From: an uncultured Muribaculaceae bacterium | GTDB lineage: Bacteria > Bacillota_I > Bacilli_A > RF39 > UBA660 | Length of the DNA stretch: 64,000 nt | Reading direction: 5' to 3' | Assembly: GCA_964513435.1 (NCBI GenBank) | Contig: CAZEMQ010000001.1 | Location: 5,883 to 69,882 of the forward strand | Shown: piece by piece, positions 1 through 54,695 of the stretch | Numbering within the stretch: position 1 is the stretch's first letter | Layout: every line of letters begins with the position of its first letter | The notes under the pieces: generated by a model | The model's input: the letters and a program-made list of their open reading frames with translations, nothing else | Database searches by the model: none | Told to the model about the DNA's origin: nothing | Made by a program: the position numbers and the translations under genes

Positions 1-21
1 AAGTAGCTTTTAAATAAAGGA

Positions 22-255
22 ATGTTTCCTAATGAGAAAAATAGAATATGGACAATGTGTCAAGCTACTTTACAAATGCTGGTAATGACTGTAGAGGAAG
101 CTGAAAAAGCTAAAATGACGAGTGAACAGTTCTTTTTATCATTCGAGAATGTAGTAAACAACATATCTGTAAAAGATCATAATGATACATCTAAGGGATT
201 AGATGAGTTTAAAAACAATTTGAACGATTTTAATGCCGATTCGGGAATATCCTGA
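22..255 (+). CDS. hypothetical protein
   Basis: ORF from the track; ends with TGA; no recognisable motif. Confidence 0.3.
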   Translation: MFPNEKNRIWTMCQATLQMLVMTVEEAEKAKMTSEQFFLSFENVVNNISVKDHNDTSKGLDEFKNNLNDFNADSGIS

Positions 256-273
256 ATCGGTATTTTACTTATT

Positions 274-924
274 ATGGAATTAAATAAACTTATTTCAAAA
301 CCACAATGTATTGATACTTATAAAAAAGTATCTAATTATTTAGGAAGTAAACTTGGAGAAATATTAATAGATATAGAAAAATTCTATTATAGCGATTTCT
401 GGGAATCTAGATTTAAAAGAAGATTAGCGGAAGAAGGATTAGAGTATAACCCAATTGAATTAGATAAAATATTAGGGGTTACTACTTTACTTAAAGAGAA
501 TAATGTATTTAAATTATTTGACAAAGATGAGAATAATAAAGGAGTATCTAATAAAGGTACTATGATAGCTCTTAATATAAATATGAGTATTGAATAGTCT
601 AATGATTCTCACATTAAGAATGTTATTATGCATGAATTTGGACACAGGCAATACAATTAGGAAGAGTTTCGTATAATAAAATACTTAAACAGTAAGATAT
701 TAAAATCCCCCTCCCCTATGGGTTTGGAAAGTGAATTAGATTATCAATACTTTACCAATAAAAATGAAATTCGTTAGAGAATAATTCCACTTGTTAAGGA
801 AATGTATGATAACGCATGGACACCTGAATAGATATATTATTTATCAGATAATTTAAGGCAAGATGATTTATATGATATGTATAGTAAAGCAGAAATTTTA
901 TATTGGTTAGAAAATATACTATAA
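274..924 (+). CDS. putative zinc-metallopeptidase-like protein, TAG-recoded (in-frame TAG at 595, 658, 775, 829)
   Basis: Track ORF 274..597 ends in TAG. The same frame stays open for ~110 more codons through 3 further TAGs to TAA at 922-924. It contains the HEFGH (HExxH) motif at ~630-645. Confidence 0.5.
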
Positions 925-964
925 TAGCCAGTCTTGGAATATTCCGAGATTGGCTATTTTGTTT

Positions 965-1672
965 TTATACAATATAATTATTCTGAGATTGTTCTCTTTC
1001 TTTTAAAAGTTTGTCTATTAGTTTTTGTTGTGCTTCAATCTTTTTGCTTAATTCAATAATATTTTCTGTATTTTGTTCTATCTTATTTTCATGTTCTTTT
1101 AGTTTCCAAATAATTGCTTGACCTAATTCAGCTAGTTTGAATAATTTAGTATCTGTTTTACAACCCGTTTCTATATCCCTATTTTTATTATCAACTGAAA
1201 CTAAATAATTTTCTTTTTTTAATTCCTGATTACACTTACGAATGCAAGATTCTGACATATTTATCTTATTAGCAAGATCATAATTAGAATACGAAATTTT
1301 CCCAAAGCCTTCTGTATCTTTGTACATATATTGTTGTGCAGCCACAAGATATGCTTTAGTAGTTGGAGTTAACGTTTGATTTTTTATGAATTCTGGACTA
1401 AAAGGTTCAAAAGTTTTATATTTACTAAATGTATAATAATTTCTACGTCCTTTTTTCTCTACTTTAATATAATCTTCTTTTACTAAGTTATCTATACATT
1501 TTTTAATTGTTGGAATACTAATTTTAGATTCTTCAGCAATTAAAGCTAATGATGGAAAACATCCATCTTTTCCGTTATGAGATTTAATCACTACATAAAC
1601 CAATTGATCAATTGGTTTTAAATTGTGATTTGACATTTCATTTGGTAATTGTGTGTGTTGTTTTGTTTCCAT
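965..1672 (-). CDS. tandem winged-HTH DNA-binding protein with C-terminal coiled coil (putative replication initiator or early regulator)
   Basis: Two HTH-like repeats and a K/E-rich heptad C-terminus. Divergent from the iteron/repeat region. Confidence 0.5.
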   Translation of the reverse strand: METKQHTQLPNEMSNHNLKPIDQLVYVVIKSHNGKDGCFPSLALIAEESKISIPTIKKCIDNLVKEDYIKVEKKGRRNYYTFSKYKTFEPFSPEFIKNQTLTPTTKAYLVAAQQYMYKDTEGFGKISYSNYDLANKINMSESCIRKCNQELKKENYLVSVDNKNRDIETGCKTDTKLFKLAELGQAIIWKLKEHENKIEQNTENIIELSKKIEAQQKLIDKLLKEREQSQNNYIV

Positions 1673-1675
1673 TAA

Positions 1676-1800
1676 AAATTTAAAATTTATATTCAGCTTT
1701 ACTTAGTTTTTGAGGCTTATATAGATTAGTCTTTAAATATATATTTAAAATTTTATCCTTCAAAATTTTATCAATTATTTTAACAAAATTTTTAATTATG
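1676..1800 (+). repeat. promoter/leader module copy 1 (AAATTTATATTCAGCTTTACTTAGTTTTTGAGG...TTCAAAATT...AATTATG)
   Basis: ~120-bp direct repeat shared with 2010..2170. Confidence 0.6.
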
Positions 1801-1982
1801 AAAACTGATGCGCATAGATTTTAATATACTGCGCACCAAATTGCATAATTTGCGCACCAGTTTTCAACTAACTATACTTAATACTATACTTAATCGTAAC
1901 TATACTTAAACGCCTGACGGCGATTTTTTCCTGTTTTAGTTTATCTGTAATGTACAGATTTTTACTTTATAAGGGATTTATA

Positions 1983-2330
1983 GAAAATTTTGTATGTTGT
2001 GAATGAGATTTTTAAAGTTTATATTCAGTTTTACTTAGTTTTTTCGAGGTGTGTCCCCTATCTTATTATATAGTGCCACACCCCAACTCTTATAGAGCCA
2101 AACTTAAATATATTTAAAATTTTATTCTTCAAAATTATAATATCGAATTTAACAAAAATTATGTGTTAAAAAGAGAATAAATTTTATATATGTTGTGGAT
2201 GAGGGAGTGATATATTAAAGTGCTATACGTGTTAAAAATTTTATATGTATTATAGATGTAAGAGTGCAAAATTCAATATGCATTTATATATTGAAAATTT
2301 TTATATATGTTATGGATGAAGGAGTGCATT
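1983..2330 (+). repeat. iteron array, four copies of ~AAATTTTATATATGTTGTGGATGAGGGAGTG
   Basis: Copies at ~1983, 2179, 2234 and 2294 with small variations. Confidence 0.55.
2010..2170 (+). repeat. promoter/leader module copy 2
   Basis: Near-identical ends to copy 1. Carries an internal GGTGTG..CACACC insertion. Confidence 0.6.
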
Positions 2331-2333
2331 TCT

Positions 2334-2360
2334 CCTTTGAACCCCCGGGGGTTTCAAAGG
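2334..2360. repeat. 27-bp GC-core palindrome CCTTTGAACCCCCGGGGGTTTCAAAGG
   Basis: Near-perfect inverted repeat with no loop. The only GC-rich block in the region. Confidence 0.6.
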
Positions 2361-2439
2361 GAAAATAACCTAGCCAAACGCTACTTACAACTACAAATAT
2401 TTAGGCGATATGTAAAAAATATCTGCATTACCAAGTGTT

Positions 2440-2560
2440 CAGCGTGAGCGTTCACTTGAAGAGTTCAGCGTGAAGTCGAACTATAAAAACTTCATGACTT
2501 TGTTCATTTCAAAGCAAATGAACTAAACTTGCGTGTTCACTAATGCAACACGAGACCTAA
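2440..2560 (+). promoter_or_regulatory. array of at least six GTTCA half-sites / small inverted repeats upstream of the first early gene
   Basis: GTGTTCAGCGTGAGCGTTCAC, GAGTTCAGCGTGA, GTTCATTTCAAAGCAAATGAAC, GCGTGTTCAC. Confidence 0.45.
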
Positions 2561-2572
2561 TACACTTAAATT

Positions 2573-3025
2573 ATGTTTACAGGTTTTGTTCCAGTACAAA
2601 ATGCAGAAGAAGTCGCAAAGAAATCGTTTGATTTATCGAACGGGACTTCACCGTTTCAACACGATGTTGAATTTACCGTTACGGGATGGGATATGCATTA
2701 TCGAACAGAGGACAATAGAGTAGTTCAAGGCTCGAGAGCATTACCGATTTTGAAAACTACTATCGGTGATTGTTTTATTTCAATGATTATTAAAGCGAAG
2801 GTTTCAGCAGATAGAAAGCTCGTTGAACCAAGCGGAACCTTTAATAAGAAAGTCAGAGAAATAATCATAGACAATCGAGGGAAATCTACTTACGACATTC
2901 TTAACGCGATTTGCGATGCGGCTAAAGACAAGAAAATTCGCGTTTCACGTGAATTTTATCCAGCATTGGCAAAAGACGGTAGGGAATATCCGGGCTACCT
3001 CGTTAATCTCAATTTCATAGACTAA
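2573..3025 (+). CDS. hypothetical early protein (GC-richer codon usage)
   Basis: First ORF downstream of the control region. Composition distinct from the bulk genome. Confidence 0.45.
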   Translation: MFTGFVPVQNAEEVAKKSFDLSNGTSPFQHDVEFTVTGWDMHYRTEDNRVVQGSRALPILKTTIGDCFISMIIKAKVSADRKLVEPSGTFNKKVREIIIDNRGKSTYDILNAICDAAKDKKIRVSREFYPALAKDGREYPGYLVNLNFID

Positions 3026-3091
3026 AGTCTATCGACCTAAGCAAGTCGATAAACTGCTTACTTTTAATCTAATAATCTAAATAATAAAACT

Positions 3092-3412
3092 ATGTTACTT
3101 CATACAAACACTCCGATAATAAATAGATTTTTTACCGCAGGTTACATGATTAATCATAAAATGGTAAAGAAGTTCTACAATATATTCAAAACTACTGAAT
3201 ATTTTACATTAGATGAAGATTTAATTAATATCTTAAAAGACAGCGAACTTGAAGAAGCGAAGAAAATAATTCGCTTAAATGATAGGAGGAAAGGGATAGG
3301 AATTGAATCTAATAACAGTGCTTTATATAGTTCTTCTGATGGGTTAAGAATAAACTACAATGATAAACATAGCAGACAATTACTTAATCCTGGAATTTAC
3401 TATGGAATTTAA
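3092..3412 (+). CDS. hypothetical protein
   Basis: ORF from the track. Confidence 0.35.
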   Translation: MLLHTNTPIINRFFTAGYMINHKMVKKFYNIFKTTEYFTLDEDLINILKDSELEEAKKIIRLNDRRKGIGIESNNSALYSSSDGLRINYNDKHSRQLLNPGIYYGI

Positions 3413-3418
3413 TAAAAT

Positions 3419-3456
3419 AAGGGTGTTCCTCGAAAGAGGTTCACCCCTTATCTTTT
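3419..3456 (+). terminator. rho-independent terminator
   Basis: GGGTGTTCCTC-GAAA-GAGGTTCACCC hairpin followed by a T-tract. Confidence 0.55.
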
Positions 3457-3713
3457 GAATACAAACGATACTATGTTGCACCAACTACACTATGTTGCAC
3501 CAATAACCTAGCCAAATATATTACCTAAATAACCTAGCCAAGTGTATAGGCAGCTATAATTACTTAGTGTATAAGGAATGTATACATTATACTATTATAG
3601 TATGCAACAATTTAATGATGAAATCATATATCTCACATCTAAAAAGAGAATATATCCTATTTTAATTATTAATCTTTAAAACCTTATGGTGTATAGGAAA
3701 CCGTATTTAAGAA

Positions 3714-4181
3714 ATGGCTAGTTTAGCAGTTGAAGAAAAAAGACAAATCGCAATGGGTGCAAAAGAAGTTAATTCTTTTGGTGGTGCAGTACGTTCTTTA
3801 GAGAACTCTGGTCTTGAGAAAGGTGATACATTCACTTTTCCAAAAACGTATGATAAAATTTATGAACGTGTGTTTGGAACCAATAAGGCTGCTTACATTT
3901 TAGTAGAAGTCGGTCCAGATAATGTTAAACCATTTTATCCGAGTACTTTTACAAAGTCCAGAACTATCTATAATGAGGATAAAACAAGTACTGGTCAAAG
4001 GGTGCATACAACTGGTACAGCAGCTGAGATTTTCCAGAAGTGTGCAACAATGGATGAAGGAATGCAGAAATTAGCTGGTAAAAAAGTGATTGTTTCTGAT
4101 GTTAAGACTATTCGTACTTTACGTTATGGAACAACAGATTTAATGAATGCTCAAATTCCTGTAATTGATTTAGTTGATTAA
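3714..4181 (+). CDS. hypothetical early protein (GC-richer, terminator-flanked)
   Basis: ORF, followed immediately by a strong terminator. Confidence 0.45.
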   Translation: MASLAVEEKRQIAMGAKEVNSFGGAVRSLENSGLEKGDTFTFPKTYDKIYERVFGTNKAAYILVEVGPDNVKPFYPSTFTKSRTIYNEDKTSTGQRVHTTGTAAEIFQKCATMDEGMQKLAGKKVIVSDVKTIRTLRYGTTDLMNAQIPVIDLVD

Positions 4182-4189
4182 TTATAACA

Positions 4190-4222
4190 AGAACTCCAGA
4201 TTATTCTGGAGTTCTTTTAAAC
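4190..4222 (+). terminator. rho-independent terminator
   Basis: AGAACTCCAGA-TTAT-TCTGGAGTTCT hairpin plus TTTT. Confidence 0.65.
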
Positions 4223-4230
4223 TTGCTTAA

Positions 4231-4404
4231 ACTATGATGACATTTCTTATTTTTTTATTTAAGATAATAATAAGTTGTATAATCTTATACTTTATATATT
4301 GGATGAGTGTAGGAGGTATGTTTGCTGGATTAATGGGACTTGTTATAGGTGTAGTTTTTCTTAATAATATATGGAGTGGTTCAGAAGAAGAACCTGGATT
4401 ATAA
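4231..4404 (+). CDS. small hydrophobic membrane protein (57 aa)
   Basis: Manual ORF MMTFLIFLFKIIISCIILYFIYWMSVGGMFAGLMGLVIGVVFLNN...; below the track size cutoff. Confidence 0.3.
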   Translation, partial: TMMTFLIFLFKIIISCIILYFIYWMSVGGMFAGLMGLVIGVVFLNNIWSGSEEEPGL

Positions 4405-4413
4405 CGTATTCTA

Positions 4414-4620
4414 TTGTATAGCAAAATCATGTTAATGAAGTGTATTTTAGGTCAAAAGATTGGAGATTCCTTGATTCTGGATGATGATGGGAATCTTCAA
4501 TCAATATATCCAGATGTATTTTATTCACGTAACATGTATGCTTATTGGCAATTAAAGAAAATGGGAGATTTTTGGGTAATAGTAAAGGTATTTAGGGTGA
4601 TAGATGAAAATGGCAGATAA
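4414..4620 (+). CDS. hypothetical protein
   Basis: ORF from the track. Confidence 0.3.
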   Translation: MYSKIMLMKCILGQKIGDSLILDDDGNLQSIYPDVFYSRNMYAYWQLKKMGDFWVIVKVFRVIDENGR

Positions 4621-4920
4621 AGTGTAAAATTTTGAGTTAAGCGAGCAAAATTTGAAAATTTTGAGTTTAGAGGCAGTTTTCATAATTGAGGCTGATACCT
4701 AAAGATTTGAAGTTCATGGGGGGGTGAAGTGAGAAAATTGAAGGCTAAGCCCCATCTTTAACCCTTTTCTTCAATTCAACTTTATAATTCATACGCCCTT
4801 GATAATCCCCACACATACATATCCAATTTAAAAACTTTCATCTTTAAAAAAATGTTTAACAGAATTATAAAATAGAATTATCAAAATAAAATAAGTAAAA
4901 AGTAACTATTTAAGAATAAA

Positions 4921-5136
4921 ATGAAAACTAAACAATGTTTTTATTTAATAGCTCATTGTATAGAAGCTAATAATCTTGTTGTTGATAAAATATTTCTTCA
5001 AAAATACGAAGCTGTTAAATATGGAAGAAAACTTGCTACGAATAATACTAATATATTAGTATATCTTTATGAACAAGAGATTACCCGAAAGGGAACTCTT
5101 GATTTTGTTACTGATTTAAAACCATTTGAAAAATGA
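4921..5136 (+). CDS. hypothetical protein
   Basis: ORF from the track. Confidence 0.3.
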   Translation: MKTKQCFYLIAHCIEANNLVVDKIFLQKYEAVKYGRKLATNNTNILVYLYEQEITRKGTLDFVTDLKPFEK

Positions 5137-5194
5137 ATGGATTACCAGAAAATATTTAATTAAGTAATTTAAAACCTCACAATGTATAGGATAA

Positions 5195-5413
5195 TTGTTA
5201 TATAAAATGAGACGTAGATTTAAAACATCAAGAGTTTGTAGCTCTGATAATTACAAATTATCTAGAAAACTAAGCAATGTTTCAAAACATGTACAAGTAA
5301 AAGAAAAACTTGTTATTAGAAAATATTATGTTAAGTGTTTTGACAAGTTAATAGAAATAACAGAAAACGAAGCAATTTGTATTTATAAATCTATAGAAAT
5401 TATAATAGAATGA
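5195..5413 (+). CDS. hypothetical basic protein
   Basis: ORF from the track. Confidence 0.3.
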   Translation: MLYKMRRRFKTSRVCSSDNYKLSRKLSNVSKHVQVKEKLVIRKYYVKCFDKLIEITENEAICIYKSIEIIIE

Positions 5414-5671
5414 GAACAAAAATTTATCTTACTGTTCCTGATTCATATATCCTTGGAATAGCATTTAATAAAATTGATAAAGGTTTTTCATTTGGTATTT
5501 GTCTGTTTAAAATAGCAATTGTGTTAGATTTTCAAAATAAATAAATTATGAAAGTAAATATTAGAACTGAAAAAATTGAAAGTATAACTTTAGGTACGGC
5601 TCTTGACGTAAGTACGGTAGGTATAACATTTTCCATTGGTTTATTTAAAATAGCAATCGCTTAGATATATT

Positions 5672-6046
5672 ATGGTAAATAAATATTTTAGTTATAATAG
5701 AGAGTTCAGAATTGATACAGTTAACAGTGTAGTCTTTTGTATACTACACTGTTACGTTCATTTTGATATGGAAAATGAAATAAGAAGGAAATTTCTACAA
5801 TTTGGAGATTTTGTTGTAAAGGCAAAAGCAAAATGTCATGCAAATGACAGCTTTGATCTTGAAAAAGGTAAAAGTATTGCCGAAAGTAGAGCTATTGCTA
5901 AAGCATATTCGTTAGTAATTAAATCTCTTAATTCTATATGTGAATACTATTTAAATAAATCAAATGAATTTGAAAATATAAAAAATAATTTTGAATTAGA
6001 GGAATCTAAAGAAAAATTACGTATATTTGAACTAACAAACTTGTAA
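5672..6046 (+). CDS. hypothetical protein
   Basis: ORF preceded by the repeated GTTTAAAATAGCAAT motif. Confidence 0.35.
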   Translation: MVNKYFSYNREFRIDTVNSVVFCILHCYVHFDMENEIRRKFLQFGDFVVKAKAKCHANDSFDLEKGKSIAESRAIAKAYSLVIKSLNSICEYYLNKSNEFENIKNNFELEESKEKLRIFELTNL

Positions 6047-7359: not shown

Positions 7360-7847
7360 TGAGCAAATCGTTTGTTTTAATAGGCGTAATAGCATGGTTA
7401 TCAATTTCAATATGGTTATCGGTTATTACATATAAAGTATATAATCTAACTCATAAACCAGTAAATATTGAATTTGAACTAAAACTCAATGATAATTCTG
7501 AGTTTATGAAAGATTGGGAAGCTAATGTCACCAATATGCTTGCAGCTTGTACATATTATGACATTAAATGTCCCAAGATAGTTACAGCACAAGCCATATT
7601 GGAATCTGGTAACTTCAAGTCTAATGTATTTAAAAAGTATAATAACCCTTTTGGACTTTATAATAGTAAAACAAAAGATTATTTTAAGTTTGAACATTGG
7701 ACTGACGCAGTAGTAGCTTATAAAAATATGATTCAATATCGTTATAAAGAAGGAGATTATTATATATTTTTAAAAAAAACACGATACGCAGAAGATCCTA
7801 ATTATATAAATAAAGTAAAAGCAATAGAAAACAGTTTAAAAATATGA
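7356..7847 (+). CDS. endolysin, glucosaminidase domain with N-terminal signal-anchor
   Basis: AQAILESGNFKS...NNPFGL matches the mannosyl-glycoprotein endo-beta-N-acetylglucosaminidase family; N-terminal TM helix. Confidence 0.6.
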   Translation: MMSKSFVLIGVIAWLSISIWLSVITYKVYNLTHKPVNIEFELKLNDNSEFMKDWEANVTNMLAACTYYDIKCPKIVTAQAILESGNFKSNVFKKYNNPFGLYNSKTKDYFKFEHWTDAVVAYKNMIQYRYKEGDYYIFLKKTRYAEDPNYINKVKAIENSLKI

Positions 7848-8641
7848 ATGAAAATGAAATAAAAGAACTTTAGTCTATTCTAGTAGAACAAGGATTATTA
7901 AAAGAAAATGATATTGATGGAATAATGGGTCCAAAAACTAATTCAGCATTAAAAGAATATTAGAAATATAGAATACAAAACGATAAAGGATTTATTAATA
8001 ATACATTTCCTTATGGGTATAGTGATGACGATGAAGATACTGTGTTAGGAGTTATAACTAAATTAGGTAAAGCAATATTTGGAAAATCTAATAAAAGAGA
8101 AAAATTAGATGAATTTGTGTTACTTGATTTAAGTACTCCAGAAGGTATTAAAAGAGCCAAAGAATTACGATATATTTTTAATGAAAATTTTAAGGATTAG
8201 AATTTACCATTATCTTATTTACAAAATTCTGCTAGAGCCAGATATGATTTAAATGCTTTATATCAAGGAAAACCATAGATATTTTACACATTTATGATAA
8301 ATCCTGATTATAAATCTGTTTCTGCCGGAGATAGTCCAACATATATTTATAGAAATCCTATACTTCGTAAATAGCTACAAAGTGAGGCCAGAAGTTATGG
8401 TAAAAAACATGGTATTGGCATACACAATGTAGTTGGAGATCCACTTACTACATTTAATAATTATACAATAAATACCATGCACGAAGATGGATCTGGTAGA
8501 GTAATAGATATTTGGGATTTTTCTGGAGATATGTTTAATCCTTTTAAACGTAAAGTTGTAATAGGAGATACTATTCCACCTACTGCACCTTTAAAAAATA
8601 ACATCTCAATAAGAAAATCAAAGAATTAGAAATCAAATTAA
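7844..8641 (+). CDS. TAG-recoded lysis-associated protein with peptidoglycan-binding domain (6 in-frame TAG)
   Basis: ATG overlaps the upstream TGA (ATGA). 266-codon frame interrupted only by TAG. DGIMGPKTNSALKEY[TAG]KY fits PG_binding_1 with Gln at the TAG position. Confidence 0.55.
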
Positions 8642-20274: not shown

Positions 20275-22619
20275 TTGAAGCGAATGAATAGAGATGAAAG
20301 ACAAACTTTATGTATTAAAAGATGGATAAACACTAAAGGACGCGCAAGCATTGTTGCAGCCACTGGATTTGGGAAGAGCTACGTTGGATTACGAATTATT
20401 CGAGGAATTATATCTAAGAAACGTGATTGCAAGGTTATAATTGTAGTTCCAACTATTACTTTAAAAGAGCAATGGACTAAATCAATTGATAAATGGGGAT
20501 TTACTCTTAATTGTGATATACAGGTTATAAATACTTCTATTAATAAAGAGCAAAATTGTGACTTATTAATAATTGATGAATGTCATACTGCGAATGCTGA
20601 TACTTTTAAACAAGTATTTGAAAAAATAAAGTATAGATGGATTCTTGGTCTTACAGCTACATTTGAGAGAATTGATGGTAAGCACGAAATATGCAGTAAG
20701 TATTGTCCAGTATGTGATACAATTTCAATAAATGAATGTTTAGAGAATGGTTGGGTTTCTCCTTTTAAGGAATATCAAGTTATTATTGATGTGGATGACA
20801 TTAATATTTATAAAGGATACAGTAAAGAATTTACTAAGTCTTTTGAATTTTTTGGGTTATGTGGCCCCTATTATTAGTAATAATAGAAAACCCTTTGAAA
20901 ATCTGAACCCCCATTTACATTTTGTTTTGTGTGTAAAATTTAGTAAATTTGTATTATAAATATTGACTAAATTTTAAAACTATGACTGAAAAAGAATTAG
21001 AAAAATTAAAAACATTAGAAAAATGGGAAACAGATAACCAAGGTTTAATTAAAGGAGATTGGAAATTACTAGAAGTATATAAAGAAATAAAAAAGCCTCA
21101 TCAAAAATATTGTATTATAGAATGTATTCATTGTGGTGAGACTAGATTAGTTTTGTATTACAATTTTCTAAAAAAAGAGTCCCCAAGACCATGTACTAAA
21201 TGTGGTGGAAAATGGATCACTTGGGGCAAATCTATGGTTGGCAAAATTGTAGGACATTATAAAATACTTAAATACATTGAGTGTATTAAAAGAATTTCTA
21301 ATAACAAGATAGATGTTTTCTTTAAAGTATAGTGTATATATTGTGGAGATATTAAAGAGAGAGAATTATATAACAAATCTAATTGGAATAGATATAAATT
21401 ATGTCCAAAATGTCCTAGAAGAAGAAACGATTATTATACTGTTAGATATAAAGAATATCAAAACGGAGCTAAATCTAGAAATTTAGCATGGAATCTTTCT
21501 TTAGAAGATTTTATTAAAATTAGTACTAGTAATTGTTTTTACTGTGGAGCAGAAGCCTAGGTACAAAATAGAGTACAACATGGTTGCTTAGTATCTTTAG
21601 AAGGAAATTTTAATGGAATTGACAGAGTAGATTCTAATTATGGATATACTGTAGATAACTGTGTTCCATGTTGTTCTCATTGTAATATGATGAAAATGCA
21701 CTATACAAAAGAAGAATTTTTATCTTAGATTTATAAAATATATCTTCATTCAATTAAACAAGGTCAAGAGACTATCGAAAACACATCTAATGATGGAAGT
21801 GAGTAGAGTACATTACAAGCTAATGGTAATGGAAGCGGAGGGTGTCCTATAAAGGATAATGAGATAGTCCAATCTATATAGTAATATATAGCAGTTCATA
21901 AGAGAACGTATATAACGTTGCGAGTTATATAGAATATAAATGTCGACTGGAACAAAGTAAATTCTTGTCTTGGTAAAGATGGATATAAATACCGTTATCA
22001 ACTAAGTAAGGAAATGTGTCCTAATGATGAGGAGAAAAGAAAAAACATGATGAAAAACATTACTTATCATGCAACTAACTTTATGCGTGTTCTTCAAGCT
22101 AGAAAATCATTTATCAATAATCATCCAAAGAAATTAGAAATAGCTAGAAAAATTATTGAAGCTAGACCTAATTCTAAAATTATTACTTTTAGTAATAGTA
22201 TAAAAATGGCTGAATCTATTGGAATAGGCCCTGTCTATTCTGGAAAAGATAGTAAGAAAAAAGGCAGAATTACGCTTGAAGAATATATTAATGGTAATTA
22301 TCAAGTTCTAAATACAATAAGAAAAGCAGATGCTGGTCTTGATATTCCGTCTATTTCTGTTGCTATAATTATAGGTACAGATAGTAGTAAAATTAGAGCA
22401 ATACAACGCCTTGGACGTACTTGTCGTTTTGAAGAAGACAAACGTGCTGAGATTTTTAACATCATTATTAATAATAGTGTGGAATTATCTTGGTTTGCTA
22501 ATTCACATCCAGATAATAACTATATTACAATAGACGAAAATGGACTTGATCAAGTCTTGAAAGGAGAAGAGCCTAAACTATATACTAAAAAGGTAAAGGA
22601 TTTTCAATTTAGATATTAA
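20275..22619 (+). CDS. SF2 (DEAD/DEAH-like) DNA helicase, interrupted: exon 1 20275..~20860, exon 2 ~21990..22619
   Basis: N part carries motif I ATGFGKS, motif II IIDECH and motif III LTATFER. C part carries motif V TIRKADAGLDIP and motif VI QRLGRTCR. A ~1.1-kb insertion lies between them. Confidence 0.6.
20861..21990 (+). mobile_element. putative group I intron carrying an HNH homing-endonuclease gene
   Basis: Splits the helicase. An R-like element TATTGACTAAA lies upstream of the HEG and an S-like element AATGAGATAGTCC downstream. Boundaries approximate. Confidence 0.5.
20982..21884 (+). CDS. HNH homing endonuclease, TAG-recoded (5 in-frame TAG)
   Basis: Track ORF 20982..21332 ends in TAG and the frame continues. 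CxxC...CxxC zinc ribbon, then NGIDRVDSNYGYTVDNCVPCCSHCNMMK as in the HNH_3 family. Confidence 0.6.
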
Positions 22620-22731: not shown

Positions 22732-23349
22732 ATGTTAAATCTTACAACTAATTTAGAAAATGAAATCTCTTTATTAAAGAAGTATAAAATTACTTCTAAT
22801 GAATTAATGTTTATAAGAACTCTTCTTATTTTACAAGATGAGGAAAATGAGAACCTATTTAAAGATTATATAGAAAGTTTAAGAGAATGTAATATAAAGT
22901 TAAGAGATATATTAATTTCATTACAACAGAAAGGAATTATATTAAAAAGTTTTAAAATTCCAACGGAAGGAACAAGATTTAACCCACATGAAATACCAAT
23001 TAATAAAATATTTATAAAAACATTGTATAAAAGTTCTTTTAAACTCGGAAAAGAATTATTTGAAAAATATCCACAATCGTGCATTATAAATGGAAATATT
23101 GTCATGCTGAGATCAGTATCTAAACATTTTAATTCGTTAGAGGATTGTTATTATAGATATGGAAAAAACATCGGATGGAATGAAGAAAAACATAAAAAGA
23201 TAATAGAACTTCTAGAATGGGGTAAAGAAAATAATATAATTCAACAGTCATTATCATCATTTGTTATAAATAATGCTTGGTTAGATTTAGAAGCTATTAA
23301 AAATGGCAATTCTAGTAATTATAACTTTGAAAACATTAAGATGCTATGA
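22732..23349 (+). CDS. hypothetical protein
   Basis: ORF from the track. Confidence 0.3.
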   Translation: MLNLTTNLENEISLLKKYKITSNELMFIRTLLILQDEENENLFKDYIESLRECNIKLRDILISLQQKGIILKSFKIPTEGTRFNPHEIPINKIFIKTLYKSSFKLGKELFEKYPQSCIINGNIVMLRSVSKHFNSLEDCYYRYGKNIGWNEEKHKKIIELLEWGKENNIIQQSLSSFVINNAWLDLEAIKNGNSSNYNFENIKML

Positions 23350-24419
23350 TTACTGAGTCGTTAATAGAAGCTATCGACAGAGGACGTGAGGGGAAAGAAC
23401 AAGGTATTAGTATCGGACTACCAAAATTGGAACAATATATAGATGGAGTATGTAAAGGAGTATACACACTTACTATGGCTGAAAGTGGAGTAGGTAAATC
23501 CAGTTTTATGCTTTATTCTTATGTGTATAGACCTCTTATTGATCATTTGGATGATAATAAACTGCGAATAAGTATATTCTCATTAGAAATGAATGCAAAT
23601 ATGCTTATGGCTAAATTACTTTCTACTTATATATTTGAACATTATAATGTTAGATTAAGTATAAAACAATTATTATCTGTACAAAGAGGTTTTAGATTAA
23701 ATGACAATTGTTATAAAATTGTACAAGAGTGTATTCCTTGGATGAAAAAAGTTGAATCTGTACTTACCATCTATGATAAAAGTGCTACAGCAAACTTTAT
23801 ATATAAAAGTTTGTTAAATGAACTTAATAATAGAGGTAAGTTTATAGAAACTGAACATCGAAAAATATATATTCCGAATGATCCTAATTTAACCCATATT
23901 GTTATTGTTGATCATATTGGTAGAATTATGCCTAGTGCAGGTTCTACATTAAAACAAGAAATGGATTTAGCTTCTAAGTATTTATATTCTTTAAAAAATA
24001 GATGTAATATTACTCCTATTGTCATTCAACAGATGAATAGAAGTATTCAAAGCATGGATCGTAGGAAAGAATCAATGATAACACCTTTAACCTCGGATGC
24101 AAAGGATACTAATGCTACAATTGAAGATGCAGAATCAATATTAGCTATATTTTCTCCAGATAAAGCTAAACTTAGTACATATAAAGGATATGACATAAAA
24201 GAGTTAGGCGATTCGTTTAGAAGTATTCATGTATTGAAATCTAGATATGGTGAAGCTAATGTTGAAGATGCTGTTTACTACGATGGTAAATGTAACAAAT
24301 GGATTGAATTACCACGAGCTAATGAAATTAATGATTACGAAAAGTATAAAAATCCTAGATGGTATTTAGAAAAAGATAAAGAAGATAATGAAAAACAAAA
24401 TTTTGATTTTACAATATGA
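23346..24419 (+). CDS. DnaB-family replicative helicase (RecA-like domain)
   Basis: Walker A ESGVGKSSF, Walker B IVIVDHIG, arginine finger region. Confidence 0.55.
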   Translation: MITESLIEAIDRGREGKEQGISIGLPKLEQYIDGVCKGVYTLTMAESGVGKSSFMLYSYVYRPLIDHLDDNKLRISIFSLEMNANMLMAKLLSTYIFEHYNVRLSIKQLLSVQRGFRLNDNCYKIVQECIPWMKKVESVLTIYDKSATANFIYKSLLNELNNRGKFIETEHRKIYIPNDPNLTHIVIVDHIGRIMPSAGSTLKQEMDLASKYLYSLKNRCNITPIVIQQMNRSIQSMDRRKESMITPLTSDAKDTNATIEDAESILAIFSPDKAKLSTYKGYDIKELGDSFRSIHVLKSRYGEANVEDAVYYDGKCNKWIELPRANEINDYEKYKNPRWYLEKDKEDNEKQNFDFTI

Positions 24420-27976: not shown

Positions 27977-29011
27977 ATGGGTTTTGATTTTAAAATACAC
28001 CCTATACTTTCTTCCGAATATATATTGTCTAAAATTTCGGAAGAGAGTATATTTAGTTTTTATTTAGGAATCAGTTTGTATAAAAAAGGGTTATTCTGTA
28101 GTCCTTTACGTAATGATAAACACCCTACTTGTTCTATATATAGAAATAGAAAAGGTAAATTAATTTTTAAGGATTTTGGAACTGGACAATATTTGGATTG
28201 CTGGAATTTAGTAATGACTTTGTTTAATTGTAGTTATCATGAAGCATTAAAAATTATAGCAAAAGATTTCGGATTAACAAGTGAATCTGAAGTTAAAAGA
28301 AAAGCAGTTCCTACAAATATTAAAATAAAGAAAAATGAAATTGCTAAAATACAAGTTCAAATTAAAGATTTTTCTGATATAGAATTAAAATGGTGGAAAA
28401 AATATGGAATTACACTAGATATACTTAAAAAGTTTAACGTTTACTCATGTAAATATGTTTTTTTAAATGGTAATATCATATCTGAATCTAAACAACATTG
28501 TCCAATATATGGTTATTATGGAGGTAAAATAAATAAAAATGGTGAAAAAATTGAATTATGGAGATGTTATTTCCCAAAGAGAAAAGAATATAGATTTATT
28601 GGAAATTATCCGTCAAAGAAAATACAAGGTTATAATCAACTTCCTAAAAACGGAAAATTGTGTGTAATTACAAAAAGTATGAAAGATTGTTTATCAATGT
28701 ATTCTTGTGGAATAACAGCCATCGCACCATGTTCAGAAAATTCATTTATTTCGGATACGGTATTGAAAGATTTAAAAAAGAGATTTAAGTATATTGTGGT
28801 TTTTTACGATAACGATATTCCTGGAATCCTTAATATGAGAAAAATTAGAAAAAAATATCCAGAATTAAATTTTTTTTTCATACCTAAAAAATATGAAGCT
28901 AAGGATTTTTCTGACTTTTATGCAAAATATGGAAGAAAAAAAACTTTAGAAATGATTAAATATTATATTCAAGAATTAAAAATATCAGGAAATAAAAATC
29001 TTGAAAATTAA
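27977..29011 (+). CDS. DNA primase (zinc-binding N-terminus + TOPRIM)
   Basis: CSPLRNDKHPTCS zinc-finger-like segment; TOPRIM signature GKLCVITKSMKDCL...VFYDNDIPG. Confidence 0.5.
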   Translation: MGFDFKIHPILSSEYILSKISEESIFSFYLGISLYKKGLFCSPLRNDKHPTCSIYRNRKGKLIFKDFGTGQYLDCWNLVMTLFNCSYHEALKIIAKDFGLTSESEVKRKAVPTNIKIKKNEIAKIQVQIKDFSDIELKWWKKYGITLDILKKFNVYSCKYVFLNGNIISESKQHCPIYGYYGGKINKNGEKIELWRCYFPKRKEYRFIGNYPSKKIQGYNQLPKNGKLCVITKSMKDCLSMYSCGITAIAPCSENSFISDTVLKDLKKRFKYIVVFYDNDIPGILNMRKIRKKYPELNFFFIPKKYEAKDFSDFYAKYGRKKTLEMIKYYIQELKISGNKNLEN

Positions 29012-41885: not shown

Positions 41886-43184
41886 ATGAAATATTGTATG
41901 ATAAAAGTAAGAAAAAGAAATGGAAATCTTGTACCTTTTGAAGTGCATAAAATAGAAAATGCCCTTCAAAAGGCTTTTCTATCTTGTAATTATAAGATAG
42001 ATAAATCTATAATAGAAGAAATTGCAAGCAATGTTAGTATCTGGAATGAGATCAGTGTAGAGGATATTCAAGATCAAGTAGAGGAGCTGTTGATGGATTA
42101 TGATTTCCCATCAGTTGCTAAGTCTTATATTCTTTATAGAGCTAAACATAGTGAAGCTAGATTTATTAAAGAGAGAATAGATTATATGAATAAATATAGT
42201 CTATCTAGTGATAATGCAGCTACTTCTTCAGAGACAGATGCCAACGCTAATGTTACTATGAAGAATGTTGCTAATCTAGAAGGAGAAGTATACAAGACTA
42301 CTAATAGAATTATTCAAAGACAAAGAATAAAGGATAAGTTATCTGAACTCTTTCCAGAGATAGCTAAGCAATATGAAAAAGATCTTGAAAACTATATAAT
42401 TTACGCACATGATGAGTCGCAGACTCCTACCCCGAAGGCATATTGTATGGCTGCGACTTTATATCCTTTAATGCTTGAAGGAACAGGCAGTATTGATGGG
42501 ATAACCCCTTCAGCACCTAATGACATTCAATCTTTTAGTGGACAAGTAACCAATTTAATGTTTCTACTGTCTTCACAAGTTCGTGGAGCAGTGGCAATGG
42601 GTGACTATATAATAGCTTTAAATTATTATGTAATTAAAGAGTTTGGAACTAGTTGGTATGAAAAACTAAATGCTATAGTAACCTCAGAGTATTCTATAAA
42701 TAAACGTACTATTAAAGATAGTATTAGGAAAGGAATGAAACAATTTATTTATGGAATAAATCAACCAGCTGGTAATAGAAGCTACAATAGTCCTTTCAGT
42801 AATTTAAACTTCTTTGATAAATATTATTATGAAGCTCTTTTTGATGAATTTTATTATCCTGACGGAACAAAACCTGAATGGAAAGCAATAGACTGTTTAC
42901 AAAGAATGTTTATGGAATTACTTAGAGAGTTAAGATTAATTAAACCCCTTACATTTCCTGTAACTTCTGTATGTATGTTACATGATAATCATGATTGTTT
43001 AGATCAAGAATGTAAGAAATGGGTTGCTGAAGAATGGGCTAAAGGTAGTAGTTTCTTTCTATATCTAAGCAATAATCCAAATTCAGTATCTAGTTGTTGT
43101 AGAGTACAAAATGAAATAACTGAGAATACATTTAGCTCTACTACAGGAATGACTGGGGTCAAGTCATGGCCCTTATGTGCTTAA
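41886..43184 (+). CDS. nrdD: anaerobic ribonucleotide reductase NrdD, N-terminal piece (ATP-cone + core)
   Basis: VRKRNGNLVPFEVHKIENAL is an ATP-cone; this piece ends ...TGMTGVKSWPLCA-TAA. Confidence 0.6.
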   Translation: MKYCMIKVRKRNGNLVPFEVHKIENALQKAFLSCNYKIDKSIIEEIASNVSIWNEISVEDIQDQVEELLMDYDFPSVAKSYILYRAKHSEARFIKERIDYMNKYSLSSDNAATSSETDANANVTMKNVANLEGEVYKTTNRIIQRQRIKDKLSELFPEIAKQYEKDLENYIIYAHDESQTPTPKAYCMAATLYPLMLEGTGSIDGITPSAPNDIQSFSGQVTNLMFLLSSQVRGAVAMGDYIIALNYYVIKEFGTSWYEKLNAIVTSEYSINKRTIKDSIRKGMKQFIYGINQPAGNRSYNSPFSNLNFFDKYYYEALFDEFYYPDGTKPEWKAIDCLQRMFMELLRELRLIKPLTFPVTSVCMLHDNHDCLDQECKKWVAEEWAKGSSFFLYLSNNPNSVSSCCRVQNEITENTFSSTTGMTGVKSWPLCA

Positions 43185-50778: not shown

Positions 50779-51133
50779 AATGAACTTAAATGAATTTAGA
50801 ACATTAAGAAAACCTTTTTATATCCATCCAGAAACTTTATTAATTAAGTTTCCCAGACAAAAACATCTGGATAGTTCTTGCGCGGAATGGTTCAGTGACG
50901 AAAATATTCCTTTTTTACATACAATTAGAGGATATTATAATGAAGAGGATAATTATGTAATGTTATATACTAATGATTTTGAAACACCAGATATTAGTAT
51001 AAAATTCTTAACATACATTTTTGAATATTTTCCTAATATAGATTGGATTGGTATAGGGTGTATTAAAGGAAAGGAAGGTGAAATATGGAGTCCAAAAATG
51101 AAAATACAAAGAACAAATGTTAATAAGAAATAA
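50771..51133 (+). CDS. hypothetical protein
   Basis: ORF from the track. Confidence 0.3.
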   Translation: MNKMNLNEFRTLRKPFYIHPETLLIKFPRQKHLDSSCAEWFSDENIPFLHTIRGYYNEEDNYVMLYTNDFETPDISIKFLTYIFEYFPNIDWIGIGCIKGKEGEIWSPKMKIQRTNVNKK

Positions 51134-53673
51134 GATTGTTATTGTATATGATATAGAATTATTTCCCAATGTTTTTTATTGCACATTAAAAGAAACAGAA
51201 TCAAATAAAAATGTTTCATTAGAAATTTCAAATCGAAAAAACGACATACACAAAATAATTAATTTTTTTCATAGAGTTAAAACAAAAGTAAACTCTAGAA
51301 AAGAAATTAAAGATAAATATATATTTTGTGGATATAATAATATACACTACGATAATGTTATAATTAATTATATAATTGCTAATCGAGAACGATTAATAAA
51401 TTGTAATTATGCACAAATATGTGCTGAATTATTTGAATTAAGTAATCAAATTGTTAATTCTGGAGACGGTATTCAATCTTGGTATAAATGGAAACATCTT
51501 ATTTATTTTGACACTTTAGATTTACTCACAATGTTGTTTTCTCAAAAACTTAGAGTAGGTTTAAAATCTATGCAAGTAACAATGCAATATTCAAATGTTC
51601 AAGAATATGAAGGTGATTTCAGTAAACCATTACCAGATTCTGAAATTCCAAAGATGGCTGCATACAATATCAATGACGTTGAGAGTACAACAGAATTATT
51701 AAACAGATGTAAATCGGATATTGATTTAAGACTTAATATTGAAGAAGAATACAATATTGATGTTTTAAATAAAGATGGGGTGAATATTGGAATGCAAATT
51801 ATTGCACAAAAATATTTGGAAAAAACTAAATTAAAATGGAAAGATATTAAAGATTTACGAGATCCGTGTGATGTTATAGATCTTAATCAAATAATTTTAC
51901 CATTTATCAAATTTGATAATCCGATTTTACAAGATGTATTAATAGAACTTAAAAAACAAAAAGTATCTCCAGGTAGAAAAGGTTACGAACGACATTTTCT
52001 ACTAGATAATGTTGAATATACCATAGGAGTGGGTGGTATTCATAGTGTAAATACACCTGATATATTCAAATCTGATGAAAATTGGGTAATTTCAGATATT
52101 GATGTTGCGTTAATACATTGGCGCAAGTAAAACAAACTAAATTGCGGGAACATTCTTAGAGCTTTTGTTACCAACTTATAATAGTAATATATAAGGGCAA
52201 AACTAATCACTTTGATAAGGTAAAAAGACAAAAGATTGGATAATCCGCAGCCAAGTTACCTATTTTAGGTAAAAGGTTCACAGACTATTCCTTTATGGAA
52301 GTAGGGTATAAGTGACGTTTATATCCGAAAAAGTTTGAATTTATTTTGGGAGCTAGCATTACATACTTTTAGATAAAGACGAACTAGCCTTAAAAGGAAT
52401 GTATCAAAATAAATTATGATATAGTCGATAATGAGTCGAAAGATTCATACACACGAGTAAACGTCTTAGTGTGTGAGAAAAGCGATGTATCCCAGTCTTA
52501 TAATAGAACATAAATTTTATCCACCTCAATTAGGAGAAGCGTTTTTACATATTTATTCTAAAATTAGAGAAGAAAGAGTAGAAGCTAAACATAAAGGATT
52601 TAAAACAAAAGATGCTACATTGAAGTTAGCCTTAAACGGGTTGAATTTTCGTTTCAGCTCCTTCATCCAGGGATGGATGATGTAAACAAACCAAAATCGG
52701 TGAAAGTCTGGAATGATAATACCGAGGTAATTGTAGAAACTAAAGAGTCTACAACACCGTACAGCATAGAGACTGAACCTGATTAGTCAGAATAAAATGT
52801 CTCCACGAGTGGTTTGATCTAGAACAGAATAAAATATATGCGGATCTATAACGAATTAATAAGTTATAGAAGTATGGGATAAAAAACCTGTACGATAACA
52901 ACAATGTGAGTGGCATGCTTCAAAATGAGTATAGCTTTTGTTATTCTCCCATTACAGCTATGAAAGTTAGAATAAATGGACAATTAATGTTATTAATGTT
53001 AGCAGAACGGTTAATTAACATTGGTTGTAAGGTCTTAAACGCAAATACGGATGGAATCTTTGTATTAAGATCTCGTTCTGAAGAAAAAATGTTTCAACAG
53101 GTTTGTAGGGAATGGGAAAAATTAACCAAACTTACACTTGAAGAAGATAAATTTGAAGCCTTTTATCAATTTGCTATTAATGATTATCTTGCGATTAAAG
53201 AAGGATATAGTAAAACTAAAAATCCAAAACTATTAAAGAAAAAAGGATTATTTATAGATACTGTATCTTTAGGGAAAGGAATGAATGCAATAATTATTCC
53301 AGAGGCAATTAATAAATATCTTGCAGATAATATTCCGTTAAAAGAAACCATATATAATTGTAAAGATATTAGTAAATTTTTAACTTTTCAGAAAGTGGCA
53401 AAAACCTTTTCTGTGGAATATAATGGTAAATTAATTACTCATATAAATAGATATTATGTATCAACTGATGGGTATAGTCTTTATAAATGTAAAGTCAATA
53501 CAAAAGGAGAAAGAAGTGGATATATAAATATGTTAAAAGGATATGGAGTAACTATAACAAACAATCTTGATGAAATAAAAGAATTTCCGAATAACGTTAA
53601 TTATAATTATTATATCACAGAAGCTAATAAAATAATCACAAAACTTAAACAAAAACAGTTAAGTTTGTTTTAA
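51117..53673 (+). CDS. family-B DNA polymerase, three exons (51117..52110, 52483..~52640, ~52888..53673)
   Basis: Exo motifs YDIELFPN, YNNIHYDNV and YNINDVES. Spliced motif A DIDVA|SMYPSLII; motif B region KLALNG|LYD; DTDG motif C variant in exon 3. Confidence 0.6.
52111..52482 (+). other. group I intron (ORF-less, 372 nt) in the DNA polymerase
   Basis: P AAATTGCGGGAAC, Q AATCCGCAGCC, R GGTTCACAGACTAT and S ATGATATAGTCG are all near-consensus. Exon 1 ends in U, the intron ends in G, and splicing restores motif A. Confidence 0.7.
52641..52890 (+). other. second intervening sequence in the DNA polymerase (~250 nt, type unresolved)
   Basis: Exon 2 terminates at TAA 52683 after motif B begins. 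The exon 3 frame opens at ~52870 and completes motif B. Core intron elements are not clear. Confidence 0.35.
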
Positions 53674-53909: not shown

Positions 53910-54695
53910 ATGGAAAAGAAATTTGAGATGACCGACAAATTTATTGTCAATTCTTTTGGCATCAAACTGTTTCAGATTAAATGTATTCGCAAAATCAAGT
54001 ATGCTGAAGCAGGTGAGTTGGGCGGATATATTGAGCATGAAGATAATTTGAGCCATGATGGAAATGCCTGGATTTGTAATGACGCACAGGTTTTTGACAA
54101 TGCAAAGGTTTACAACAATGCACTAATTCACGGTCGTGCAATGATTTATGGCAATGCAAGGGTCAGTGGCAATGTAGGGGTTTATGACAATGCACAGGTT
54201 TTTGGACGTGCAGATGTTTATGGCAATGTAACAATCTGTAATACTGCACAAGTCTTTGATCAAGCAGAGGTTTATAGTTACACAAATGTTCTTGATTCTG
54301 CGAAAATATATGGTCATGCTAGTGTGGGAGGTATTACAATCATCTATGAATTCGCAAATATCTGCGGTAATGCGATTGTAAAAGGTAATGCACGCATATG
54401 TGGTAATGCAAATATCTGTGGTAATGCGATTATAAACGGCAACGCACACATATGTGGTAATGCAAATATCGAAAATAATGACCAACATTGTGGCTTTGAT
54501 TATTTTGGCAGTCAGCTAAGGCACACCCATGCTTATATCACCAAAGACAAAGGAGTAGAGGTGAAATGTGGATGTTTTTGTGGTAGTATAGAAGAATTTG
54601 AACGAAGGGTTGAAGAAACGCATGGGGACTCAAAGTATGGGCGTGAATACAAGGCAATGATAAATCTTATTAAGATAAAATTTAACTTAAAATAA
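53910..54695 (+). CDS. hexapeptide-repeat (left-handed beta-helix-like) protein with C-terminal Cys-rich tail
   Basis: ~25 tandem xGNAxV hexads; GC-richer than the surrounding sequence. Confidence 0.5.
   Translation: MEKKFEMTDKFIVNSFGIKLFQIKCIRKIKYAEAGELGGYIEHEDNLSHDGNAWICNDAQVFDNAKVYNNALIHGRAMIYGNARVSGNVGVYDNAQVFGRADVYGNVTICNTAQVFDQAEVYSYTNVLDSAKIYGHASVGGITIIYEFANICGNAIVKGNARICGNANICGNAIINGNAHICGNANIENNDQHCGFDYFGSQLRHTHAYITKDKGVEVKCGCFCGSIEEFERRVEETHGDSKYGREYKAMINLIKIKFNLK

Follow-up and report, generated by a model that had tools for sequence, protein, structure and literature searches.

A 64,000-nt stretch of contig CAZEMQ010000001.1 (hereafter the window) was analysed around the ~900-nt gap between the minus-strand gene 965..1672 and a plus-strand gene start at 2573, and positions 965-1929 are read, with somewhat better than even confidence, as an iteron-type replication origin lying beside its own initiator gene. 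An earlier note, made from the letters of the sequence, had described the gap as a phage origin combined with an early promoter and operator switch; all of the elements that it listed were found at or near their places, but several descriptions proved too generous. Its origin idea is probably right for 965-1929 but was attached to the wrong repeats, the likely binding sites being TGCGCA-core repeats at 21-bp spacing. An iteron region by a divergent gene and an adjoining early-promoter-like region both stood, but the operator proposed on a GTTCA array did not, and the right-hand half belongs to a different unit, made up of a promoter-like region and an RNA leader. The features of the left-hand unit (the cassette) are as follows.

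965..1672, minus strand: Rep-like initiator candidate of 235 amino acids, with two winged-helix domains and a long C-terminal helix
1720..1799: block of 88-93% A+T that separates the iterons from the start of the gene, with the lowest duplex stability in the region
1799..1814, minus strand: inverted iteron copy TGAAAACTGATGCGCA, with 16-nt arms 1799-1814 / 1851-1866 that are 94% complementary
Starts at 1809, 1830, and 1851, plus strand: three TGCGCA-core iterons, spaced exactly 21 bp apart
1871..1909, plus strand: three ACTATACTTAA 11-mers, the only exact copies in the window, a candidate for unwinding or single-strand loading
1911..1929, plus strand: GC dyad CGCC-TGAC-GGCG followed by a run of six T, as read from the sequence

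The initiator-candidate protein

The product of 965..1672 matches Pfam HTH_36 (8e-13), and its best PHROG matches are replication-initiation, O-like, and DnaD-like (helicase-loader) families. The tandem winged-helix protein proposed by the earlier note was recovered in an AlphaFold2 model built from 63 homologues (predicted local distance difference test 85.9; predicted template modelling score 0.76), which has two winged helices and a 40-residue C-terminal helix. When this model was compared with the PDB by Foldseek, the best 42 matches were all RepE54, the iteron initiator of mini-F (212-228 aligned columns, E ~1e-5, template modelling score (TM) 0.45-0.50), and they include 1rep, complexes with iteron DNA, and complexes with single-stranded DNA of the unwinding element. 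Among predicted viral structures, the distant matches beyond the protein's own family are named replication initiator protein, replication protein O, and COG5527. Searches with the protein by tblastn gave no match in phages and one weak partial match only in plasmids; homologues in metagenomes form 104 clusters on contigs of up to 175 kb, and the identical protein sequence is present on a public contig of 130,273 nt.

Among solved structures, the protein is closest in sequence to TubR (E 1.4e-4) and AspA, over the first domain only, which speaks for a different reading: the repeats would be a centromere for plasmid-like partition, and the protein a winged-helix centromere binder akin to TubR or AspA. 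These E-values are weak, the fold of the whole protein is that of RepE, and no TubZ, ParA, or ParM-type NTPase gene is adjacent to the cassette here or in the relatives examined, the neighbours being small proteins without family assignment; a partition centromere thus deserves very little credence.

The initiator candidate contains no in-frame TAG, while the recoded genes of the window average ~1.8% TAG codons. Since ~4 would be expected in 235 codons, the gene appears to be expressed as one of the early, unrecoded type. The cassette heads a plus-strand block (2573 to ~58,500) with several replication proteins, namely a DnaB-like helicase, a DnaG-type primase, a clamp-loader-like ATPase, an ATP-dependent ligase, and a DNA polymerase fragment. 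In related loci L016 and L019, two copies of the winged-helix gene lie close together, and the family members P0005 and P0088 are each carried on a 174,783-nt contig, probably one and the same; more than one cassette per genome is thus possible.

Phased iterons and their co-variation with the protein

The earlier note had listed three TGCGCAC repeats to the right of the gene; three TGCGCA cores are present, but the first reads TGCGCAT. The sequence TGCGCAC occurs twice in the 64 kb, both times in the iterons, against 0.36 expected. The repeats lie 137-194 nt outside the coding sequence of 965..1672, with full direct copies at 1830-1845 and 1851-1866, and the inverted copy at 1799-1814 is a candidate operator for autoregulation.

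Relatives were obtained by exact DNA-pattern scans for two adjacent 11-mers in public collections, which returned 14 contigs from IMG/VR (13-204 kb, most of them 146-204 kb) and 53 contigs from a metagenome collection. A single-protein search for related loci in IMG/VR found none for either flanking protein. Two relatives with 71% and 61% protein identity have 21-bp direct repeats followed by a ACTATACTTAA triple beside the gene. Across ~25 distinct repeat classes from both sources, the interval between repeats is 21 bp in 48 of 64 cases and 20-23 bp in 62 of them, and the last iteron always abuts CTA-ACTATACTTAA, the first of the three 11-mers. The iteron sequence itself is completely different between lineages (for example, TGACCGAGA.., GACCATTGGCTA.., TCAAAATTGATAG, AACTGCAAAATC.., and CTACCTATTAGC..). 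In relatives, the repeat or its first half recurs in inverted orientation on the gene-proximal side; for example, L004 has a half-iteron palindrome, GGTGCGAA-TGA-TTCGCACC, at the equivalent place.

The variation of the iterons is matched by variation in the protein. A first-domain helix starting SIPT pairs with TT[GT]CA in the second half of the repeat in 8 of 8 classes, and a helix of type SINT pairs with TGATA, likewise in 8 of 8 classes, both counts being uncorrected for shared ancestry. Similarly, the second-domain helix type ES..R[KR]CN pairs with a [TG]CGCAC first half-site. Both pairings occur in both combinations, so that the halves assort independently, which is what the two-domain, RepE-like reading of a bipartite site predicts. 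This co-variation of helices and half-sites lends indirect support to binding of the iterons by the candidate initiator.

Invariant 11-mers and the adjoining duplex

The three short repeats reported at 1870-1905 were confirmed as exactly three copies of ACTATACTTAA, at 1871, 1883, and 1899. The 11-mer is nearly invariant across lineages while the surrounding sequence changes, and the gaps between copies range from 1 to 7 nt among lineages. A blastn search of the 11-mer region against phages gave no match, and a literature search on the 11-mer returned nothing relevant. In 12 of the 25 distinct classes, the third 11-mer is followed by a GC dyad with a T-rich tail, the stems of which differ in sequence. 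Across the iterons from the 11-mers, the block at 1720-1799 has a nearest-neighbour stability of -37.6 to -38.5 kcal per 40 bp, which ranks it within roughly the 1% of the window that is least stable; it contains -10-like hexamers on the minus strand, probably holds the promoter of the initiator gene, and is also a candidate for an alternative unwinding site. No DnaA-box cluster was found in the region, which has one 8-of-9 match (2194-2202), and the window as a whole has 30 such matches against 24 expected, which is no more than chance would give.

In the mechanism proposed for this self-contained replication cassette, the divergent gene would make a RepE-like initiator with two winged helices, monomers of which would bind the TGCGCA-core repeats two helical turns apart, one winged helix per repeat half. 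Binding to the inverted copy by the gene promoter would let the initiator repress its own synthesis. The filled array would open adjacent DNA, either at the three ACTATACTTAA 11-mers or in the A+T-rich block opposite, and the phage's own DnaB-like helicase and primase would then be loaded at the opened DNA. The preferred view is that the 11-mers serve in loading or unwinding and that a conserved component reads them, possibly in single-stranded form, because their variable spacing suits a phased double-strand array less well. A bolder form of this proposal makes the triple a sequence-specific loading signal that is read single-stranded by the helicase, the primase, or a conserved part of the initiator, and treats the initiator gene, its iterons, and the 11-mers as one portable replicon module, which large crAss-like phages would exchange, duplicate, and re-target through independent changes of the two helices and the two iteron halves; in this full form it is possible but doubtful.

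The strongest alternative is that the winged-helix protein is a transcription regulator only, with the phased repeats serving as an operator or activator array for its own promoter or for a rightward promoter in the 11-mers. An arrangement of direct repeats immediately before a core promoter is typical of activators, and plus-strand sigma-70-like pairs (TTTTCA-18-TATACT and TTAATA-17-TATACT) do lie on the last iteron and the 11-mers. In addition, NCBIfam and several Pfam matches of the protein are to MarR, GntR, and MntR-type regulators, all below cut-offs. The full-length fold is nevertheless that of RepE, the two-domain regulator SarS reaching just TM 0.24, and the PHROG matches are replication initiators. 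A transcript begun in the 11-mers would be no longer than 20-30 nt when it reached the GC dyad and T run, and 11-mer gaps of 1-7 nt poorly fit a fixed promoter geometry. A purely regulatory role is on these grounds unlikely, if still well ahead of the partition centromere.

The dyad and T run after the third 11-mer, found in 12 of 25 classes with different stems, would also suit a short plus-strand non-coding RNA that crosses the iterons and 11-mers and ends there, acting as a primer, an origin-activating transcript, or a regulatory RNA, any of which could coexist with an origin. In the crAss-like phage phi14:2, long intergenic regions close to the early genes show very high transcription (bioRxiv 10.1101/2020.03.07.982082). 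The stems here are only 3-5 bp, the dyad is absent in half of the classes, no Rfam match was obtained, and complementary targets in the window are not above chance, so that such an RNA is improbable.

Slightly less credible still is a packaging site, at which a small-terminase-like protein would bind the variable repeats and the conserved large terminase the 11-mers. In lambda cosB, three R sites lie beside the gene for the winged-helix protein Nu1, a similar layout; a packaging site would account for invariant 11-mers beside fast-changing repeats, and the cassette does have a TAG-recoded block ending on one side of it and the early genes beginning on the other. No terminase family appears among the Pfam, PHROG, or fold matches of the protein, however, or among the Pfam and PHROG matches of the flanking genes scanned, and 965..1672 is not TAG-recoded, unlike the recoded genes. 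The motif also occurs at varied internal positions in large contigs, with no consistent contig end there; contig ends were rejected as genome termini, the edges of the loci being those of storage blocks and varying in position.

Distribution in relatives and weighing of the origin reading

Linkage of the 11-mers to the gene was tallied in loci with at least 900 nt upstream of the motif. Among loci with a third 11-mer, 31 have a divergent winged-helix gene within 260 nt and 9 do not; among loci without a third copy, the corresponding numbers are 4 and 17. The 17 two-copy loci without the gene look like chance matches, and the 9 triple exceptions include unrelated tandem arrays and two loci in which the gene is 1.3 kb off. 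A scan of genome contigs gave five 11-mer matches without a winged-helix gene, four with two copies only and one (L027) an unrelated tandem array; these were set aside as chance matches or unrelated repeats, and the 11-mer motif therefore looks phage-specific.

The two halves of the region can occur apart. In L022 and L023, which were found through the leader sequence described below, a homologue of gene 256-924 leads directly into the promoter-like motif, with the GC hairpin, leader, and first early gene after it; a winged-helix gene, iterons, and 11-mers are all absent there. L002 has both units, but 2.4 kb separate the cassette from the leader and its gene. Since the right-hand unit stands alone or at a distance from the cassette in these relatives, the region is taken to merge a cassette (965-1929) with the head of an early operon (~2179-2572). 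A ~70-nt intergenic fragment of the gene that matches window open reading frame (ORF) 256-924 (window 700-770) was found at L004:7600-7690 on the minus strand, which suggests a past rearrangement at the junction.

Several observations weigh against the origin. There is no GC-skew inflection at the cassette, a check that the earlier note had proposed; the skew tracks the coding strand, its sole real switch in the window is at ~58.6 kb, and it was rejected as an origin indicator because it follows gene orientation only. The RepE fold match is moderate at the TM given above, Rep_3 (PF01051) is absent among the 20 Pfam families matched at E <= 0.1, and the NCBIfam matches of the protein are all sub-threshold transcription regulators. 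The 11-mers are only moderately A+T-rich and form a moderately unstable duplex, the most meltable DNA lying across the iterons from them, and the helix and half-site counts ignore shared ancestry. Finally, the cassette is missing from the equivalent position in some relatives, so that it may not be the only or an essential origin. With these points counted, an iteron-type origin at 965-1929 is still the more probable explanation.

A proposed early-operon head and its structured leader

The right-hand unit (~2179-2572) is read as the head of an early operon, in which a promoter-like motif, a GC hairpin, a AACCTAGCCAA box, and a folded leader precede the first early gene. The features from the end of the cassette to this gene are as follows.

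1983..2336, plus strand: promoter-like leader-start motif AAATTTT..ATGTT..GATGAGGGAGTG, four copies at 1983, 2179, 2236, and 2296
2010..2160: partial duplicate of 1676-1795, including a very A+T-rich block
2334..2360, plus strand: GC-rich hairpin immediately after the last motif copy
2364..2378, plus strand: AATAACCTAGCCAAA box, recurring at 3502 and 3528 ahead of the next early gene
2432..2559, plus strand: structured RNA leader of ~130 nt with six helices as predicted by RNAalifold (2432-2458, 2438-2452, 2471-2494, 2502-2523, 2532-2552, and a closing helix 2459-2465 / 2554-2559)
2573..3025, plus strand: first early gene (150 amino acids), which always carries the structured leader

The ~31-bp repeats that had been counted as four iterons are the copies of the leader-start motif. 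Four copies are present, but they are just 63-73% identical to the reference copy, are 31-41 nt long, and were reported by Tandem Repeats Finder as 2.5 copies of a 57-nt period with 72% matches. They align with a single motif, AAATTTT..ATGTT..GAGRGAGTRC, in L004, L008, L013, L022, and L023; it stands upstream of the hairpin in L004, L022, and L023, and L008 and L013 have no clear hairpin after it. A profile of the motif has no other match in the window and finds one copy per related locus, which makes it a one-per-genome leader-start element that has been amplified here, with only the last copy (2296) in conserved context. These repeats were rejected as initiator sites, as the motif occurs once per related genome at the head of the leader, even where no winged-helix gene is present at this place; it may instead be an early promoter or transcript start, although this role is unproven. 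In L012, seven tandem copies of the 18-nt GTATATACGATGTGTGTT (L012:1380-1500) lie ~190-310 nt downstream of its 11-mers, at the spot of the amplified motif in the window.

A second duplication overlaps these copies. The earlier note had seen two near-identical modules of ~120-160 bp, beginning at 1676 and 2010; two matching blocks do exist, one of 24 nt (1688-1711 / 2020-2043, 96%) and one of 53 nt (1739-1791 / 2108-2160, 83%), but near-identity does not extend over the whole length, the blocks being separated by unrelated segments of ~25 nt and ~62 nt. The A+T block of the cassette is the part duplicated at 2100-2160, and 2100-2139 is as unstable as 1720-1799. The duplicate at 2010-2160 is absent from L002, L004, and L012 and is specific to the phage of the window.

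The GC palindrome at 2334-2360, which had been described as loop-less, has arms of 13 and 14 nt and is virtually loop-free but contains a one-base bulge. It is kept in 5 relatives, where 4 of its 12 pairs are compensatory and some are G-U pairs, weak evidence for a hairpin. The AACCTAGCCAA box, given as AATAACCTAGCCAAA in the list above, comes after this hairpin and is also carried by L023, of the L022/L023 pair; it has 3 matches against 0.72 expected and is conserved after the hairpin in L004, L012, and L023. Ahead of the second early gene (3714), the segment 3461-3542 contains two 19-nt direct repeats of ACTATGTTGCACCAA type and two further AATAACCTAGCCAA boxes, and a terminator-like hairpin (3421-3447) lies just upstream of these repeats.

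The leader is the best-supported structure of this unit. In the RNAalifold consensus of five sequences, 13 of the 38 pairs have changes on both sides (compensatory), and 94.7% of the alignment cells are paired, compared with 30-39% when the partners are slid by 1-3 columns. In shuffled alignments, the observed values were reached in 0 of 500 for four of five measures and in 1 of 500 for the fifth. The presence of G-U pairs assigns the structure to the plus-strand transcript. A covariance model found a sixth copy on which it had not been trained (L002:5457-5630, 156 bits), right before the homologous gene, and a search of 2432-2559 against Rfam 15 gave only chance-level matches (E >= 0.5, far below gathering scores).

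The GTTCA cluster of the earlier note, with five plus-strand copies and one inverted copy within 2437-2539, is a real enrichment (6 in 103 nt compared with ~1 per 600 nt window-wide). As a DNA operator it was rejected, since five of the six copies are not conserved in relatives and all six lie in helices of the plus-strand leader, only the GTTCA in the last helix being conserved. The leader ends ~14 nt upstream of the start codon of 2573..3025, homologues of which stand behind the leader in L002, L004, L012, L022, and L023. The 150-amino-acid protein has no Pfam, PHROG, or NCBIfam family assignment, and the leader presumably controls the translation or stability of this first early gene.

Genome setting

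The window is A+T-rich (~28% G+C), and its positions 1-6000 gave no megablast match in GenBank phages. From its genes and the 130,273-nt contig, it is part of a large crAss-like relative in which TAG is partly recoded. Its primase shares 35-37% identity with crAss-like phage primases and 51-55% with unannotated "Bacteriophage sp." records from human faeces. Four recoded ORFs were noted, each uninterrupted only when TAG is decoded as a sense codon, and most other genes of the window, including the whole replication block, have no in-frame TAG.

256-924, plus strand: TAG-recoded ORF with 4 in-frame TAGs and a HEFGH zinc-protease-like motif
7814-8641, plus strand: TAG-recoded ORF with 6 in-frame TAGs
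20967-21884, plus strand: TAG-recoded ORF with 5 in-frame TAGs
23346-24419: DnaB-like helicase
27977-29011: primase
60358-63999, minus strand: TAG-recoded ORF with 22 in-frame TAGs

On the left flank of the cassette, the recoded gene stops at 924 and is followed by a strong terminator hairpin (923-958). A tRNA with a CTA anticodon, which would read TAG, is present in three relatives (L004:9193-9266, L022:6299-6376, and L023:3860-3931), near homologues of window genes 22-924 in L022 and L023 and ~0.5 kb past the 3' end of the winged-helix gene in L004. In the window, ARAGORN found tRNA-Arg(TCT) and tRNA-Leu(TAA) only and no suppressor tRNA, the gene for which may lie just beyond the left edge.

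Elsewhere in the window, the ORF for anaerobic ribonucleotide reductase (41886-43184) covers only positions 47-353 of a 978-position PHROG profile, and that for DNA polymerase (51117-52130) covers only positions 51-357 of 663. LAGLIDADG, NUMOD, and GIY-YIG genes are close by in relatives, and both genes may be split by introns, inteins, or homing-endonuclease insertions. ORF 53910-54695 contains tandem repeats with units of 18 and 54 nt (matches of <=90%) at 54137-54470, which suggests that it codes for a repeat-containing protein.

Comparison with known systems

The closest likeness is to the iteron origins of mini-F (ori2/RepE), pPS10, and pSC101 (RepA), with which the cassette shares a predicted tandem winged-helix initiator fold, 3-4 direct repeats of ~21-22 bp in helical phase beside the initiator gene, and an inverted half-repeat on the probable promoter side of that gene. 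The order in iteron plasmids is short motifs, iterons, operator, and gene, and the cassette, with its candidate operator, matches it part for part. Unlike these systems, the protein lacks the Pfam Rep_3 signature and has an extra long C-terminal helix, no DnaA-box cluster is present in the region, the short repeats are invariant in sequence across lineages whose iterons have fully diverged, and the cassette belongs to a phage of ~130 kb that codes for its own helicase and primase. Given the absence of Rep_3 membership and DnaA boxes and the additional helix, it is described as working like an iteron origin and not as a member of that family.

Similarly, O and ori-lambda resemble the cassette in the N-terminal HTH_36/O-like domain and in combining a phage-encoded initiator, here a candidate, with iterons. 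The O gene of lambda itself contains the iterons, and O brings in the host helicase by way of P; here the repeats are outside the initiator gene and the phage has its own helicase. The 13-mers of RK2 oriV with TrfA, and the complexes of RepE with single-stranded DNA (PDB 8ac8 and 8aan; PMC10602881), offer a parallel for the 11-mers, as short motifs adjoin iterons in both and the fold matches include these complexes. Unlike the RK2 case, the 11-mers are not the most A+T-rich segment of the cassette, and their reading as single strands is an inference.

For crAss-like phages, the exact mode of genome replication was stated as unknown in a 2023 review of Crassvirales (PMC10136315). The sole origin statement found for the group concerns Lera, a zeta crAss-like phage in which Ori-Finder placed an origin where the nucleic-acid-metabolism block starts (PMC12386605); this is a software-predicted interval only, for which no initiator, iterons, or conserved motif is described, and neither that paper nor a 2021 metagenome survey mentions iterons or a replication initiation protein. 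If the origin proposed here is correct, it would be the first concrete candidate for a poorly understood group of uncultured phages, would provide a testable pair of initiator and site for a clade with genomes of 130-200 kb, and would offer a candidate minimal replicon for the building of genetic tools, while the ~25 matched variants of helix and half-site could reveal a recognition code of winged helices. Finally, phi14:2 likewise has an extended non-coding region at the end of its crAss-like genome where the early genes lie (bioRxiv 10.1101/2020.03.07.982082), a likeness of position; in the window, this place holds a covarying leader of ~130 nt tied to one gene, which is a candidate for a new cis-regulatory RNA of early phage genes beyond those in Rfam.

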